Source: a virus (lineage: Duplodnaviria; Heunggongvirae; Uroviricota; Caudoviricetes). From it: a stretch of 42,541 bases of DNA. The notes under the pieces are model-generated. The model did no database searches, was not told where the DNA came from, and saw only the letters and a program-made list of their open reading frames with translations. The translations under genes were made by a program, and so were the position numbers. The DNA is taken from IMG/VR virus record IMGVR_UViG_2529293215_000009; one strand, given 5' to 3'. Of this stretch, positions 1,690-22,677 are shown in pieces. How positions within the stretch are numbered: position 1 is the first letter of the stretch; every line of letters starts with the position of its first letter.

Positions 1690-1862
1690 TGTAACCAGGT
1701 GAATCATTTGATACCAACGAGGGTTTTAGTGAAAGGAGGTGAAATCACCTGTAAGATACTGAAATAAAACAGGTGATGTCTGGATGAGCGCTTAAAGTCT
1801 ATTTGATACCGATTGTGCAATAATTAATCGTTTATTCTAAAATCGGCAAAACTTTTGATACT
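1690..1862 (+). repeat. left end (attL-like) with three TTTGATAC(C/T) putative transposase-binding repeats
   Basis: TTTGATACC at 1707..1715 and 1802..1810, TTTGATACT at 1854..1862; same motif in inverted orientation three times at right end; starts 5'-TGTA like Mu. Confidence 0.55.
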
Positions 1863-1939
1863 GCGATCTCAACTTTTTAAAGCGTTTAAAACTTCATTAA
1901 ATCTATATGGCAACTAACATACGGGCCAGCCTCGCCAAA

Positions 1940-2470
1940 CTAACCCGCTTTAGATTCTACCGGATTTGATTGCCTACTTGTCTCGGTTTTTTCCAAAATC
2001 TCTCTGACGCAATCGTCTGGCATATCTACAATCATCAACGCAGCCAGGCGCTTCCTGCCTTCTAGTTGTAATAAATCCTGGTTTTCTTTATCCAGCAGTG
2101 TCAGAACCGTCTCTACACCTTTGCGAGCAAGGAGATTGGTTAACTGTTCTCGTTCGTCTTTCGTAAGGAATGAAAGCATCTGTGTAAGTTGATCTCCCTT
2201 ATCACCAGAACAACCAAAATTACCACAAATACCAACATCGTTTGGTGATTCACCCTTGCCCTCTTTAAGCCACTCAAGACTAACTCCTTCACTTTCAGAA
2301 ATTCGTATAAGGATACTTTCTCTGGGGGCTGGTTGTGTTTGTCCTCCCTTGAAATAGCTGTTTAATGTGTTGATATTGATTCCCCACGCTCTGGCAGCTG
2401 CACTTCTTGAAGGGTAGCGCTTTGTAAGCATTCCAATACGTTCAATAACAGGTTCTTTTCCCTGCGACAT
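1940..2470 (-). CDS. c: prophage repressor (c-like), HTH DNA-binding
   Basis: Minus-strand ORF next to left end and divergent from ner as in Mu; HTH-like SRSAAARAWGININTLNSYFKGG; start taken at ATG 2470 (MSQGKEP) with upstream AGAGG. Confidence 0.65.
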   Translation of the reverse strand: MSQGKEPVIERIGMLTKRYPSRSAAARAWGININTLNSYFKGGQTQPAPRESILIRISESEGVSLEWLKEGKGESPNDVGICGNFGCSGDKGDQLTQMLSFLTKDEREQLTNLLARKGVETVLTLLDKENQDLLQLEGRKRLAALMIVDMPDDCVREILEKTETSRQSNPVESKAG

Positions 2471-2552
2471 AAAGATACCTCTTGGTGCTTTTCTAAGGAA
2501 AGGTTTCTTTCTATTTATCCAATTGAAAAATAAGGATAAAAGCAAAAATTAG

Positions 2553-2587
2553 CCAAAATACCAAAAATACCTTGATTTGGTATTTTT
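2553..2587. promoter_or_regulatory. operator-like repeats between c and ner
   Basis: CCAAAATACC AAAAATACC ttgattt GGTATTTTT: perfect 9-bp inverted repeat with 7-bp spacer plus a direct copy, in the divergent c/ner control region. Confidence 0.5.
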
Positions 2588-2600
2588 AGTGATGCATTAT

Positions 2601-2640
2601 TTACCCGTGCAGATATCCGCACGAATATCCGCGCGGGTAA
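2601..2640. promoter_or_regulatory. second operator-like element (inverted TTACCCG arms enclosing tandem ATATCCGC)
   Basis: TTACCCG at 2601..2607 and CGGGTAA at 2634..2640; ATATCCGC at 2613..2620 and 2625..2632, about 20 bp upstream of ner ATG. Confidence 0.4.
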
Positions 2641-2660
2641 CTTTTTAGAATAGAGGAAGT

Positions 2661-2909
2661 ATGAGTAGAAGAGAAGTTTCAGATCACGATTGGCCGCCTG
2701 AAATCATCAAGGCGCGCTTACACATGGCTGGCTTATCACTGCGCTCTTTATCTTTAAAGGCTGGTTACAGCAGGGATTCGCTGAAAAGCGTATTACGTAC
2801 TCCTTGCCGACCGTATCAGCAAATAATTGCTGATGCTCTTGGGGTATCGCCTGAAGAAATCTGGCCCAGTAGATACCAGGTTAAGAGCTATATGAGAAAG
2901 GCGTCATGA
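2661..2909 (+). CDS. ner: Ner-like DNA-binding regulator (Nlp/Ner family)
   Basis: 82 aa; C-terminal QQIIADALGVSPEEIWPSRYQ closely matches Mu Ner EQIIANALETKPEVIWPSRYQ; position immediately upstream of transposase. Confidence 0.85.
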   Translation: MSRREVSDHDWPPEIIKARLHMAGLSLRSLSLKAGYSRDSLKSVLRTPCRPYQQIIADALGVSPEEIWPSRYQVKSYMRKAS

Positions 2910-2910
2910 T

Positions 2911-5001
2911 ATGTATGTCATTGCAAAAGAACTGATTGGCGCGCCCGGAATGCCTGCTACAACAAAAGGTATTCGCCAGGCATTACAACGTTACGTACAA
3001 GGGAAAAGCTGTTGTTCCCGTCGTCGCTCAGGCTCTAAAGCAACTGAATACAGCATCGACTGTTTACCTGAAGTGACGCAGCAGGCATTACGTGAACGTT
3101 ATGCCCTGCAACTGATGACGCAAAAAGCCGATGAATCACCGGCTCCGGTAGTGACAAAGGCCAGGCGCTCACCTGCCGTGGTTGATGCGGTGGAGGCATA
3201 TCGCGGATCACCACAACTGATGGTCGAACGCCTTAATGCCCTGACTGAAAACCAGCGCCAGGTGGCTGATGCACGAATCGCGATCGTCAGCGAAGTTCTG
3301 AAAGTCGCGCAACAACCTGGTTTCAGCTGTGCGAAGGCTATCCGGTTTATCGTTGACAACCTGGCACGTTCGCAGCTGGACGAGCGCATTGTGGCAATGG
3401 TTGAGACGGCGAACGCCAAAAAGGGAAACAGCCGCGCGTTAAGTGAAATCACGCTGAAACGCTGGATTGCGGCCTTTAACAAGGCGCAGAACGCCGCTGA
3501 ACGCCTGCTTTTACTGGCACCGGGTAAGCGCCAGGAAATAAAAGCCGAAGATATTAACTGGCTGCCCGAATTTCTGGCGCAGTATCGCCAGTCAAACGGC
3601 CGACCAATGACCGAGGCTTACGAGGATTTTGTCGCTGAATGGCAGCACCGGCACGCTGATGAGCCTTATATGCTCGATATCATGCCGTCTTATGACACCA
3701 TTCGCCGCGCAATGAAGAAACTGCCGGAAGTGGTGAAACAAAAAGGCCGGGTGACCGGCAGTGAATACCGCCAGCTTGAGGGATTCACGCGCCGCGACTG
3801 GTCAAAAATGCCGGTGAATTATGTCTGGATTGGTGACGGTCACGGCATGAAGCTGAAATGCGCACACCCGGTTCACGGTCGGCCATTTGCACCGGAAGTG
3901 ACCTTTGTTATCGACGGTGGCACGCGCTTTGTGGTGGGCTGGAGCCTTGACCTGGCTGAAAATGTTTTCGCCGTAGCCGGTGCCATACAGCACGGCATTC
4001 GCCATCACGGCAAACCGTTTCTGTATTACTCGGATAACGGCTCCGGGGAAACCGCCGACATCCTGGATAAGGAGGTTGTGGGGATACTGCCGCGACTGGG
4101 GATTAATCACCCGACCGGGATTGCCGGTAATCCGCAGGGACGAGGCATTATCGAACGGCTTAACCGCACATTACCGATGCGCATAGCCCGTAAATACCGC
4201 ACCTATTTCGGGAAAGGTGCAGATCGCGAGACGTTACGCAAAACCAACCGCGATTTACGCTCGGCATTTACTGCCCTGCAACAGGGCAAACGGCTGAACG
4301 CCCGGCAGCAGTCAGCGATGCGTGATTTACCGTCCTGGTCTGAACTGATTGATGCCATTCGTGATGGTGTTGAGTGGTACAACAACCGGCCGCACGATGA
4401 ATTACCGGTGAAGCCGAACGGCAAGCATTACAGCCCGGCGGAGTTCAGAAAAAAACGCCTGGCGGAAGAGGACACGGAAATTGAATGGCTGTCCGATGTG
4501 GAATTGCGGGACATGTTCCGGCCGATGGTGGAACGCCCTGTAAGACGCTGTGAAATACGCTGGCTGAATAATATTTACTACGCGCCCGAGCTGCGTGATG
4601 AGCATGGCCGCAAGGTGCTTATCAGCTATGACATTCATGATGCCGAACGAATTACCGTACGTCGCCTGGATGGCAGCGTGATTTGCGAGGCGGTATGGGA
4701 CGGTAATAAACGCGAAGCCTTCCCGGTTAGCGCGGAATACTACAAACAGCAGCAACGCCTTAAAGGCATGCGTAAACGCGCAGAGGAAAAAATCCGTGAT
4801 GCCGAGGATGAGGTTGTCAACGTGCTGGAGCACAAGCCGCAGGAGCCCTGGCTGGAAAACATCTATCGCCCGGTAGGTAATACGGTGGCCGTTCAGCAAC
4901 CTGCCGTTGATGATGAGCCTGATGAAGAATACGAGCGCAATTTCCAGCGGGGATTGCAGTTGCTCGAAGCGAAATTAAAAGAAAATGACCCGCTGGCCTG
5001 A
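2911..5001 (+). CDS. A: Mu-type DDE transposase A
   Basis: 696 aa after ner; DDE-like blocks NYVWIGDGHGMK, LYYSDNGSGE, GNPQGRGIIERLNRTL; size and position as MuA. Confidence 0.9.
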   Translation: MYVIAKELIGAPGMPATTKGIRQALQRYVQGKSCCSRRRSGSKATEYSIDCLPEVTQQALRERYALQLMTQKADESPAPVVTKARRSPAVVDAVEAYRGSPQLMVERLNALTENQRQVADARIAIVSEVLKVAQQPGFSCAKAIRFIVDNLARSQLDERIVAMVETANAKKGNSRALSEITLKRWIAAFNKAQNAAERLLLLAPGKRQEIKAEDINWLPEFLAQYRQSNGRPMTEAYEDFVAEWQHRHADEPYMLDIMPSYDTIRRAMKKLPEVVKQKGRVTGSEYRQLEGFTRRDWSKMPVNYVWIGDGHGMKLKCAHPVHGRPFAPEVTFVIDGGTRFVVGWSLDLAENVFAVAGAIQHGIRHHGKPFLYYSDNGSGETADILDKEVVGILPRLGINHPTGIAGNPQGRGIIERLNRTLPMRIARKYRTYFGKGADRETLRKTNRDLRSAFTALQQGKRLNARQQSAMRDLPSWSELIDAIRDGVEWYNNRPHDELPVKPNGKHYSPAEFRKKRLAEEDTEIEWLSDVELRDMFRPMVERPVRRCEIRWLNNIYYAPELRDEHGRKVLISYDIHDAERITVRRLDGSVICEAVWDGNKREAFPVSAEYYKQQQRLKGMRKRAEEKIRDAEDEVVNVLEHKPQEPWLENIYRPVGNTVAVQQPAVDDEPDEEYERNFQRGLQLLEAKLKENDPLA

Positions 5002-5071
5002 AATAAAAAATAACCCGAGCGGCGACTCAGGTTATTTGATTAAACAAGGTATCAAATGAGAGGTTAATAAT

Positions 5072-6004
5072 ATGACTGATATTAACGATGTAATCAAGAC
5101 CATTGATGAACTTATTGATGGCGGCGTACTGACGCAGTATGCCATCGCCAGAGAGGCGGGAATTTCCGACGGCACATTATCGGCTTTCCGCAAGGGGAAA
5201 TATAAAGGCGATAACGCCGCTGTGGCTGCTTCCCTGCGTTCCTGGTATGAGAACTGGAATAAACAAAGCGCACTGCCGGAACCGCCGCAGTTTGTGGAAA
5301 CGCAGACAGTTCAGGAGCTGCGCGCACTGTTTCAGGCGGTTCGCCTGATGGGCTGTATTAACGTCATTGTGGGCGTGCCGGGGGTAGGTAAAACGGCCAC
5401 CGCCCGTAATTACTGCCAGGAGCAACCAAACACCTGGATGATCACCCTGTCACCCGCGCACTCCAGCGTCACGGAGTGTCTGCTGGAGCTGGCCGATGCG
5501 CTGGGGATTGATTACACCCGCGCGAACAAAGGGGCATTATCCCGCGCCATCCGCCGTCGCCTGATGGGAACGCGTGGACTGGTGATTGTGGATGAGGCGG
5601 ATCATCTTGGTATTGACGGTCTGGAGCAACTCCGGGCAATTCAGGACGCCACGGGGATCGGGATGGTGCTTATTGGTAACCCGCGCGGATTGTTTAAAGG
5701 TGGACGCCGCGCCTTTGATGATTTATCGCGCCTGTTCAGCCGTCTTGCCCGTACAAAACAACTTCGCAAGGCCAAAAAGGCGGATGTGCTGGCCATTGCC
5801 AGGGCATGGGGTATCAGTGGTGAGGCCGAGCTGGCCGTCATGCAGGCTATCGCTGAAAAGCCGGGAGCGTTACGCGTTCTGACACATACGCTTAACCAGG
5901 CGTGGCTCACCGCCAGCGGTGAAGGTGCGGCGCTGACAGAAAAACATATTAATGCGGCCTTTAAAGAGGTTTATACCAACCCTGAATTACTCTCACAGGT
6001 GTGA
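5072..6004 (+). CDS. B: Mu B-like transposition ATPase (AAA+)
   Basis: 310 aa; Walker A GVPGVGKT, Walker B LVIVDEADHLG; immediately after A. Confidence 0.9.
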   Translation: MTDINDVIKTIDELIDGGVLTQYAIAREAGISDGTLSAFRKGKYKGDNAAVAASLRSWYENWNKQSALPEPPQFVETQTVQELRALFQAVRLMGCINVIVGVPGVGKTATARNYCQEQPNTWMITLSPAHSSVTECLLELADALGIDYTRANKGALSRAIRRRLMGTRGLVIVDEADHLGIDGLEQLRAIQDATGIGMVLIGNPRGLFKGGRRAFDDLSRLFSRLARTKQLRKAKKADVLAIARAWGISGEAELAVMQAIAEKPGALRVLTHTLNQAWLTASGEGAALTEKHINAAFKEVYTNPELLSQV

Positions 6005-9064: not shown

Positions 9065-9579
9065 TGTTCTTTAAAACATCAAACCCTTCCGCGCTGGCTG
9101 CGTGGCAAAAATACCAGCAGGACTACAAGAAAGTTAAGGATGAGGCAAAACGTCTTGAGGCCGTGCTGAATGTTGATTGTCGGTCGGTATTTGTATCCGG
9201 TATCAATGGTTTTTATTTTAAAGGACTGCGTTTTACGGATAACAAATATCCTTTTCATCGCGACTTATGGCGAAAACCGACTGCGTCGAATGGCTGGAGC
9301 TGCACGCCGCGCACATCGTGTATTCCCAAAGCCCTGTGCGCTGCCTCTGACGAACTTAACAGTCTGTGGCGTGAATATTCGCCCGTCACGTATGCCAGAA
9401 CCGATGCCCTGTTGTTCTGGCTGGGTATTGATTTCTCGGCAATCCTGTTTGGCCCTGTGGAGTGGTTCTGCGTTGACGATGTGATTTACCTTCAGTGCGG
9501 CGTAAAACCCGCAAAACAGAAAATGACCGAAATTCTGTCTGATGAGTTTTATGCTGCTGAAAAGCGAGTCAGGGGGTGA
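9064..9579 (+). CDS. hypothetical protein (accessory early region)
   Basis: 171 aa; start overlaps upstream stop (TAATG). Confidence 0.4.
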   Translation: MFFKTSNPSALAAWQKYQQDYKKVKDEAKRLEAVLNVDCRSVFVSGINGFYFKGLRFTDNKYPFHRDLWRKPTASNGWSCTPRTSCIPKALCAASDELNSLWREYSPVTYARTDALLFWLGIDFSAILFGPVEWFCVDDVIYLQCGVKPAKQKMTEILSDEFYAAEKRVRG

Positions 9580-10456: not shown

Positions 10457-10807
10457 GTGAGAAGTTATATTGATAATGAAAAACTGAAGACAATCAGCGA
10501 CTGTCTTAGCTTGCTGGCAAAAATAAAAGAAACCATTGAAGAGATTAAATTTCAGCTTGAATACGAACCCTGTGGCGATGATACATGGCGTAACTCTGCC
10601 AGAAAAGCACTGGCTGTCTTTCAGAAACAACGCCGGACTGTTGAATACCGCCTTGCTGTATTGCGCCAGGAGGAAAAGGAAAGAAATATAAGACGTCATG
10701 AACTCGTTAATGATTTTCTTGTTCGTGAATTAAAGGAGCGTGTGCCGGAGTCGGTATTTTTTGAGTGTGAGGCTGTTGCCCGTAGCAAAGCACTGGAAAC
10801 TGATTAA
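10457..10807 (+). CDS. hypothetical protein (start uncertain)
   Basis: ORF 10415..10807; GTG at 10457 preceded by GGGAGGTGA; coiled-coil-like composition. Confidence 0.35.
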   Translation: MRSYIDNEKLKTISDCLSLLAKIKETIEEIKFQLEYEPCGDDTWRNSARKALAVFQKQRRTVEYRLAVLRQEEKERNIRRHELVNDFLVRELKERVPESVFFECEAVARSKALETD

Positions 10808-21730: not shown

Positions 21731-22677
21731 TGCCTACCCCGATTACACCGGCGATGATCACCGCCCTGATGACGGGCTACCGTTCTGATTTTCAGGCCGG
21801 GATGTCCATGGCCCCGTCGCAGTATAAAAAAATTGCGATGACCGTGCCCTCCACATCGAAATCCAACACCTACGGCTGGCTGGGGCAGTTCCCGCAGTTC
21901 CGTGAGTGGATCGGCTCCCGCGTCATCGAGAAGATGAAAGCCTATGGCTATGCCATCGTGAACAAAACTTTTGAAGGCACTGTCGCCATTAGCCGCGATG
22001 ACTTCGAAGACGACAACCTCGGTATTTATTCCCCGTTGTTCCAGGAGATGGGGCGCGCTGCGGCGGTACAACCGGATGAGCTGGTCTTTGCTGCCCTGCG
22101 TGACGGGATCAGTGCGGCCTGCTATGACGGTCAGAACTTCTTTGATACCGAACATCCGGTTTACCCCAAAGTGGATGGCTCCGGGGATGCGCAGATGGTC
22201 AGCAATATGTTTGTGGCAAAAACCGGCTCTGTCGGCGCACAGGCTGATTACAGCGGTCCGGCCTGGTATCTGCTTGACTGCTCCCGCGCGGTAAAACCGC
22301 TGATTTATCAGGATCGCCGTAAGGCTGAACTGGTTGCCCAGACCAAAGTCGATGAAGGTCGCGCATTCACCGATAACGAATTTGTGTTTGGTGCATCCGC
22401 CCGTCGCAATGTGGGCTACGGCTTCTGGCAGATGGCCTACATGATGCAGTCACCGCTGACGCTGGATGCACTGTGGCACGGCTGGTCAGCCATGCGCGAA
22501 TTTACCGCTGACGGTGGCCGCAAACTCGGCATTAAACCCACCCATATTGTTGTCCCCACCTCGCTGGAAAAACAGGCGGTGCAGCTGCTGGAGCGTGAAC
22601 TGTTCGCAGACGGAAACGCAACCGTCTCTAACGAGATGAAGGGCAAGCTGGAGCTGGTTGTCGCGGATTATCTGTAA
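21730..22677 (+). CDS. major capsid protein (Mu T-like)
   Basis: 315 aa; follows protease/scaffold with ATGCAATAATG overlap; length typical of Mu-type major head subunit. Confidence 0.8.
   Translation: MPTPITPAMITALMTGYRSDFQAGMSMAPSQYKKIAMTVPSTSKSNTYGWLGQFPQFREWIGSRVIEKMKAYGYAIVNKTFEGTVAISRDDFEDDNLGIYSPLFQEMGRAAAVQPDELVFAALRDGISAACYDGQNFFDTEHPVYPKVDGSGDAQMVSNMFVAKTGSVGAQADYSGPAWYLLDCSRAVKPLIYQDRRKAELVAQTKVDEGRAFTDNEFVFGASARRNVGYGFWQMAYMMQSPLTLDALWHGWSAMREFTADGGRKLGIKPTHIVVPTSLEKQAVQLLERELFADGNATVSNEMKGKLELVVADYL

Follow-up and report, generated by a model that had tools for sequence, protein, structure and literature searches.

The window analyzed here is a stretch of 42,541 nucleotides (nt) of DNA (IMG/VR record IMGVR_UViG_2529293215_000009) that harbors a Mu-like prophage of ∼39.2 kb at positions 1690–40908. 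At the left end of this prophage, open reading frames and Pfam matches give the gene order c (minus strand), ner, A and B, as in Mu. Our subject is the segment 2471–2660 between c and ner. Here a Mu-like transposable prophage of E. coli controls the choice between lysis and lysogeny, by a real but ordinary kind of phage switch. A previous sequence-only reading had placed this segment in a divergent c/ner context, and both genes were found as stated. The repressor gene c occupies 1940–2470 on the minus strand (176 aa, ATG at 2470) and is preceded by the Shine-Dalgarno sequence AAGAGG, the reverse complement of 2478–2483; in relatives, RefSeq annotates the same 531-nt coding sequence. The ner gene lies at 2661–2909 on the plus strand (82 aa, Shine-Dalgarno sequence GAGGAAG at 2653–2659). 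It is the first gene of the early operon and encodes a true Ner homologue, which matches Pfam HTH_35 (E 2.5e-19, 69.5 bits at a cutoff of 25) and shares 43% of its residues with Mu Ner (E 3e-14). It is followed by the genes for a Mu-type transposase (2911–5001; Pfam Mu-transpos_C and HTH_Tnp_Mu_1) and the MuB ATPase (5072–6004; Pfam Phage-MuB_C).

The control region contains two distinct repeat systems, which had been reported at coordinates that direct reading and a repeat search both confirmed. System 1 consists of AAAAATACC (2563–2571) and GGTATTTTT (2579–2587), separated by the 7-nt spacer TTGATTT, and of an additional direct copy cAAAATACC at 2554–2562. The repeat search recovered it as the inverted repeats I3 (11 nt, perfect) and I2 (12 nt, 92%). 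System 2 comprises TTACCCG (2601–2607), CGGGTAA (2634–2640) and two copies of ATATCCGC (2613–2620 and 2625–2632). It had been described as inverted TTACCCG arms enclosing tandem ATATCCGC. While all of these elements exist, 2601–2640 is better read as a single imperfect palindrome of 40 bp (I1 in the repeat search; arms of 19+19 nt, 84% complementary, 2-nt center), in which the tandem copies form the inner arms instead of constituting an element of their own. They appear in tandem since GATATC, which is part of the inner arm, is self-complementary. In 2000 dinucleotide-preserving shuffles of 2471–2660, a perfect 11-nt inverted repeat with a spacer of ≤12 nt occurred five times and arms with 16/19 complementary positions occurred twice, while no shuffle contained both kinds of repeat. 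Both systems are therefore non-random. Lone copies of AAAAATACC (9107–9115) and GGTATTTTT (10753–10761), both inside open reading frames of the early/middle region and without a partner half-site, are probably due to chance.

Relatives were collected from an alignment of Ner, which provided 21 loci from reference genomes and 35 from IMG/VR. Addition of Yersinia phage Tongde, Pseudomonas phage VW-6B and three E. coli variants resulted in 28 non-redundant control regions, to which the comparative counts below refer. These loci, from Escherichia, Yersinia, Serratia, Kluyvera, Pseudomonas and others, have one architecture in common, consisting of two clusters of half-sites and a spacer. Between the arms of system 1 lies a −35 element, TTGATT (2572–2577, plus strand), which is followed after 17 bp by the −10 element CATTAT (2595–2600), and we infer a transcription start near 2607. 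We named this early promoter Pe by analogy with Mu. In 25 of the 28 relatives the −35/−10 pair is the best plus-strand match to a sigma-70 position-weight matrix, and its distance from the ner ATG is fixed. Its mean score over the 28 loci is 9.8, compared to 4.2 for shuffles of the same stretch, and several relatives carry the consensus TTGACA together with TATGAT or TATTCT. The elements, their conservation and the position of the promoter are thus directly supported by the sequence and its comparison.

Comparison of the relatives supports system 1 as the putative operator of c on Pe. The arms of system 1, which bracket the Pe −35, are built from a 9-bp half-site with the family form GGT(A/T)(T/C)TTTT. 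The left arm (2554–2571, minus strand) consists of the two tandem half-sites cAAAATACC (2554–2562) and AAAAATACC (2563–2571), while in the right arm (2579–2596, plus strand) GGTATTTTT (2579–2587) is followed by a weak outer unit, aGTGATGCA (2588–2596), so that this arm fills the Pe spacer. The copies of system 1 that had been listed earlier are all real, but the list was incomplete, since more members are located beyond or at the edge of the segment. These form a second cluster at 2451–2510 over the start of c, ∼100–105 bp to the left of the promoter-proximal cluster, and this cluster is present in all relatives. Half-site 1, GGTTCTTTT (2451–2459, plus strand), occupies this position in almost every one of the 28 relatives; it lies inside the c codons for G-K-E-P, and its conservation is inseparable from that of the GKEP codons. 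Half-site 2, AAAGATACC (2471–2479; GGTATCTTT on the minus strand, in which it is oriented), was recognized in the alignment of relatives, and half-site 3, GGTGCTTTT (2484–2492, plus strand), overlaps the c start codon in relatives. A fourth, half-site-like sequence, GGTTTCTTT (2502–2510, plus strand), corresponds in relatives to GGTTCCTTT, the reverse complement of the c Shine-Dalgarno sequence AAAGGAACC. Its status as an operator site is uncertain, because it doubles as a ribosome-binding site in those relatives. In most relatives half-sites 1–3 are located within the first ∼17 codons of c and encode K-E, G-(S/I)-F and K-E-P. The c gene of the window has no ancestral ATG (TTA at 2496–2494) and begins ∼9 codons later, at 2470, with a Shine-Dalgarno sequence of its own.

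A natural exchange of the repressor gene allows both repeat systems to be linked to their genes. In the E. coli loci L003 and L004, Ner is identical and the N-terminus of the transposase is 99% identical to that of the window, while c is only 47% identical. Between these loci and the window 2601–2660 is kept with a single nucleotide difference, but the arms of system 1 become AAAAAGAAC and GGTTCTTTT; left arms of the AAAAAGAAC type also occur in the heteroimmune locus L034. System 1 follows c and system 2 stays with ner, a linkage that is directly supported by the comparison. The proposal of separate sites for the lysogeny repressor and Ner, which had been made without assigning either system to a protein, is supported by this pattern and can be extended: system 1 would belong to c and system 2 to Ner. 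The prophage exists in E. coli in at least two immunity types (L003, L004 and L034 versus the window), which have the same ends, ner and transposase, but c proteins with only 47% identity (heteroimmune allele WP_001056416.1). On the right, the exchanged segment ends at the Pe −10 (about 2597).

Across the 28 relatives, the type of half-site follows one residue in the recognition helix of c. Loci with the helix ..TL(N/K)SY.. carry arms of the GGTAT type in seven of nine cases, whereas none of the 19 loci with ..TL(Q/K)NY.. does so and GTTCTTTT-type arms are found instead, although these counts are not phylogenetically independent. The base at position 4 of half-site 2 changes in concert with the promoter-proximal arms and the recognition helix: GTA is present in 7/9 loci of the S type and in 0/19 of the N type. 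This A/T switch alters the encoded tripeptide from G-S-F to G-I-F: GGTATTTTT encodes G-I-F, and GGTTCTTTT encodes G-S-F. The tripeptide of c therefore appears to follow the type of operator.

System 2 is most likely the operator of Ner, as judged from its position and its comparison among relatives. The putative operator is a 40-bp dyad (2601–2640) with its axis at 2620/2621. Its first base directly follows the Pe −10, and it covers the predicted start and extends to about +34. The four half-sites, TTACCC (2601–2606), GATATCC (2612–2618), GAATATCC (2623–2630) and GGGTAA (2635–2640), are spaced ∼11–12 bp apart in alternating orientation, and their family consensus is TTATCC, GATAACC, GGTTATCC and GGATAA. 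In the alignment of the 28 sequences 72.5% of the cells are complementary, compared to 15–29% on shifted axes, and six covarying pairs show at least two complementary types. In the E. coli lineage an A to T change has occurred symmetrically in both inner arms (pair 22/31: A-T in 21 sequences, T-A in four), and the outer arms read TTACCC and GGGTAA. The dyad stays together with ner when c is exchanged, as in L003 and L004, and its position is that of the Ner binding region annotated beside Pe in Mu. That the window encodes a true homologue of Mu Ner also supports this assignment.

The 40-bp palindrome might alternatively act as RNA, either as a 5′ stem-loop that stabilizes the early transcript or as an attenuator, in which half-sites 3 and 4 pair ahead of CUUUUU to form a terminator, whereas the stronger hairpin between half-sites 2 and 3 would act as antiterminator. 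Stable hairpins are predicted for the plus strand (−21 kcal/mol, z −5.2) and for the minus strand (−25.6 kcal/mol, z −6.1), and symmetric substitutions would keep RNA pairing, too. Moreover, the U-run lies within a nearly invariant block, and in L001 and similar relatives GUUAUCC-GCAC-GGAUAAC is directly followed by UUUUUA and resembles a terminator. However, the left outer arm (2601–2606) is located between the −10 and the predicted start and would be absent from a transcript that begins at Pe. It is nevertheless conserved and can pair with the right outer arm in 27/28, 28/28 and 24/28 cells, which points to recognition as DNA. In half-site 4 the inner bases differ (GGA, GGG, GAG, GAC, GGT) with no compensation in half-site 3, and the mismatches are both G.T and A.C, without a clean strand bias. 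Counted from the predicted start, the terminator-like stem of the window comprises five pairs before AC-UUUUU, and Rfam gave no match over 1690–3000 at E ≤ 1. Neither repeat system has the G+C-rich stem plus U-run of an intrinsic terminator, and the full stem of system 2 needs bases that precede the predicted start. We therefore consider a function of the palindrome as RNA unlikely.

It is also conceivable that the dyad is bound by a protein other than Ner, namely by the I-alpha-like N-terminal domain of the transposase, as an enhancer, or by the host protein DnaA. The N-terminus of the transposase is co-inherited with the dyad upon exchange of c, the Mu enhancer is located in this region, ∼1 kb from the left end (PMC3145075), and since c and the N-terminus of the transposase are unrelated, an enhancer need not match the half-sites of c. 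With regard to DnaA, TTATCCGCA in relatives is one mismatch away from a DnaA box, and L061 has a perfect TTATCCACA. The arms of the window, TTACCC and ATATCC, nevertheless differ from a DnaA box by at least four mismatches when compared by eye, and the flanking ACA of the box is not conserved. The Mu enhancer is built of repressor-type sites and not of the Ner site, and a dyad of four half-sites on the start of the promoter of ner is the classic layout for autoregulation. Binding by another protein is less economical than binding by Ner, and we regard it as quite improbable. That system 1 is a terminator of leftward transcripts or an A/T-rich UP-like element is hardly credible: a consensus scan lists 2590–2560 (minus strand) as terminator-like, the minus-strand hairpin reaches −12.8 kcal/mol (z −3.3) and the arms, −37 to −53 from the predicted Pe start, consist of A-tracts, but the stem has three G-C pairs in 12, the same half-site recurs in the left cluster in non-hairpin arrangements, and the arms change with the c allele and its recognition helix, for which a terminator or UP element offers no reason.

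The fold of the repressor had to be taken from a predicted structure, since searches of Pfam and of PDB sequences remained empty. No Pfam family scored above threshold (HTH_3 and Phage_CI_repr stayed below), and a profile search of PDB sequences with c gave no match, the Mu repressor not being among the results. The protein matched PHROG 3037, annotated as "transcriptional repressor", with E 1.1e-62 and PHROG 4, 8 and 2328 with E values of 1e-4 to 1e-5, and its 153 homologues are mostly annotated as hypothetical proteins. An AlphaFold2 model from 37 sequences reached a predicted local distance difference test (pLDDT) score >90 over the N-terminal 70 residues (residues 10–70). For this N-domain Foldseek returned P22 c2, the 434 Cro and repressor proteins, SinR and 186 CI, with target TM-scores of 0.70–0.75 and root-mean-square deviations of 2.2–3.5 Å over ∼65 residues. 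The N-domain of c is thus predicted to be a five-helix helix-turn-helix of the lambda/434 type (Cro/CI) and not the winged helix of Mu c. Residues 1–80 of c and residues 1–80 of the transposase did not align, while in Mu, which served as control, c and the N-terminus of the transposase are 41% identical (E 1e-18). The N-terminus of the window's transposase still aligns with that of MuA, and the helical C-terminal half of c is faintly similar to Mu c (29% identity, E 0.035).

Between the two half-site clusters lies an AT-rich spacer (2511–2553), in which A-tracts are phased and the motif TATCCAATTGAA (2516–2527) is conserved. In most relatives TATC-N-ATTGAW is found ∼50 bp upstream of the Pe −35 at a fixed distance. 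The spacer is located where Mu has its IHF site, and by this analogy the motif is a candidate bending or IHF site; inspection of the spacer by eye found no clean match to the IHF consensus WATCAANNNNTTR. A second conserved element, the nearly invariant block AACTTTTTAGAATAG (2639–2653, plus strand; AACTTTTTAGGATAG in relatives), is located between the dyad and the ner ribosome-binding site and is ∼100% conserved in the 28 sequences. Its AACTTTTTAGRATAG resembles TAACTTTATAGATTAC at 1062–1077 of Mu (L062) in 13/16 bases and at the equivalent place. On the minus strand the block reads TATTCT or TATCCT, a −10-like hexamer, and it could represent a minus-strand −10, a U-run or a translation signal. 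As a possible part of a c promoter beside ner, the TATTCT/TATCCT hexamer is fixed at 2652–2647 (minus strand), but it overlaps the ner ribosome-binding region, and its −35, inside ner codons, is weak, with scores of 4–6 compared to 3–4 for shuffles. The best minus-strand matches in the AT-rich spacer (e.g., TTGGCT-18-TATTTT at 2556–2527) were rejected as evidence of a c promoter, with a mean of 5.5 over the 28 loci compared to 6.0 for composition-matched shuffles.

Overall, we favor the explanation, and consider it likely on the basis of sequence and comparison, that the immunity switch of the Mu-like prophage is formed by the region between c and ner plus the initial ∼20 bp of c. Pe would drive ner, A and B rightward. 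The repressor c would recognize the 9-bp half-sites, and at 2554–2596, where an inverted pair around the −35 has outer tandem copies in 9-bp register, bound c would shut off Pe by covering its −35 along with the spacer and the A-tracts upstream. The clusters at 2554–2596 and 2451–2510 probably cooperate by looping through the AT-rich spacer, similar to O1 and O2 of Mu. The left cluster, over the ribosome-binding site and start of c, may serve the autoregulation of c. Ner bound to the dyad at 2601–2640 would throttle Pe as well as any leftward transcription that crosses toward c.

Several observations weigh against this explanation. The dyad is assigned to Ner by its position, by its co-inheritance with ner and by analogy, and the transposase gene is co-inherited to the same extent. 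Half-sites 1 and 3 lie in K-E codons that are conserved in relatives and site 4 is the ribosome-binding site of these relatives, so that coding or translation, and not binding, could explain the conservation of part of the left cluster. The half-site pairs that face inward are unequal, with a spacer of 4 nt (2479/2484) in one case and of 7 nt (2571/2579) in the other, and the remaining sites are direct repeats. The unequal spacers do not fit a simple rigid dimer and suggest flexible or higher-order binding. Pe itself is weak in the window, with 4/6 matches in both hexamers, and a generic promoter and terminator scan of the window did not call it, because each hexamer has only these four matches. 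A matrix scan of both strands in the 28 loci revealed no convincing promoter for c. Finally, full-text literature searches found no published operator, footprint or binding study of this phage family.

The sequence-only reading had compared the arrangement with the Mu switch. This holds for logic and layout but not for the relationship between repressor and transposase, as the DNA-binding domain of c is not of the Mu c type. As in Mu, c is transcribed leftward and ner, A and B rightward, at ∼0.8–1 kb from the left end; repressor half-sites form clusters, one of them on Pe, with an AT-rich segment in between, and a site of dyad symmetry is located directly downstream of the Pe −10 and ahead of ner. 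The Mu Ner site has a 12-bp consensus. It consists of two 12-bp repeats with a 6-bp spacer, and in the Mu sequence AGCTAGCTAAGT-N6-ACTTAGTTAAAT follows the promoter, whereas the putative Ner site of the window has 40 bp with four TTAYCC-like half-sites. The c promoter of Mu is located to the right of Pe and faces it across the Ner site; the matrix scans did not confirm such a promoter in the window. The half-site GGT(A/T)(T/C)TTTT also differs from the CTTTT-type sites of Mu, although its CTTTT core and the invariant AACTTTTTAGRATAG block are similar to them.

A further difference concerns the transposition enhancer. In Mu, the DNA-binding domain of c is 41% identical to the N-terminus of the transposase, and due to this shared specificity the Mu operator doubles as the enhancer; in the window, the two domains are unrelated. 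The Mu enhancer consists of two clusters of transposase-binding sites that are split by an IHF site and overlap O1–O3 (PMC3145075). One could speculate that c has exchanged its Mu-type DNA-binding domain for a helix-turn-helix of the lambda type, while the transposase keeps a Mu-like I-alpha domain, and that the enhancer is either contested by two unrelated folds or separated from the operator. We regard this scenario as doubtful. If the enhancer is still located here, either two unrelated DNA-binding folds may compete over overlapping sequences or the enhancer may lie apart from the operator. In either case, half-sites of the repressor would be written into the first ∼17 codons of c, with G-I-F or G-S-F following the operator specificity.

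Among related transposable phages, D108 and SfMu differ mainly in c and the operators, similar to the window compared with L003. SfMu and Mu share 24% identity in c and 47% in ner (PMC4406740). In D108 and SfMu, however, c and ner have diverged together from Mu, while the E. coli variants exchange only c and its half-sites, with the exchange ending at the Pe −10. With the right operator region (OR) of lambda, 434 and P22 the window has in common the fold of the c N-domain and an inverted pair of half-sites on the promoter −35. In contrast to these phages, c of the window has no S24 peptidase or lambda-type C-domain, its half-sites are of mixed orientation and spacing and form two distant clusters, and its antagonist belongs to the Ner family with a separate putative operator of its own instead of being a Cro protein that competes for the same sites. 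The control region thus represents a further, uncharacterized c/ner switch of the Mu type with a repressor domain of the lambda type.

The prophage itself is well delimited. Its left end is TGTAACC at 1690 and its right end lies at 40908, and a 5-bp target duplication, ACGCC, flanks both ends (1685–1689 and 40909–40913). Three independent E. coli insertions (L003, L004 and L005) have sequence in common with the window only rightward of 1690. The right terminus reads ...GCGCTAT, where ...CA would be expected for Mu. Inside each end there are three copies of TTTGATACY in inverted orientation (1707, 1802 and 1854 on the plus strand; 40827, 40862 and 40884 on the minus strand), which are presumably the end-binding sites of the transposase (L1–L3 and R1–R3). 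The motif occurs eight times in the window, compared to 0.38 expected, the two remaining copies being internal, at 5048 (minus strand) between the A and B genes and at 22141 (plus strand). An open reading frame at 1645–1767 crosses the prophage junction and was discarded as spurious. The left flank (1–1689) is lambdoid prophage DNA with DUF1627 and DUF4406 genes, and together the flanks 1–1689 and 40914–42541 represent lambdoid or Shiga toxin (Stx) prophage DNA, so that the transposable phage is inserted within another prophage. Near-identical DNA (99.9%) is labelled "inserted Bacteriophage Mu-like phage" in the records LC727881 and LC727895 of Stx-converting phages. A match to the prophage was found in 203 of 5426 complete E. 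coli genomes, O157:H7 among them.

The general picture of such switches is unchanged by our analysis. The prophage family is, however, common in pathogenic E. coli and is found here within a prophage of the Shiga toxin type, and its insertions disrupt genes and other prophages. With putative operators, the early promoter and the immunity-specific bases at hand, immunity groups would be predictable from sequence, and reporter or induction experiments can be designed. Since c is unrelated to the N-terminus of the transposase and can be exchanged without the transposase, the location of the enhancer becomes a testable question. How a Mu-like switch operates once repressor and transposase share no DNA-binding domain can be examined in this family as a natural test case.

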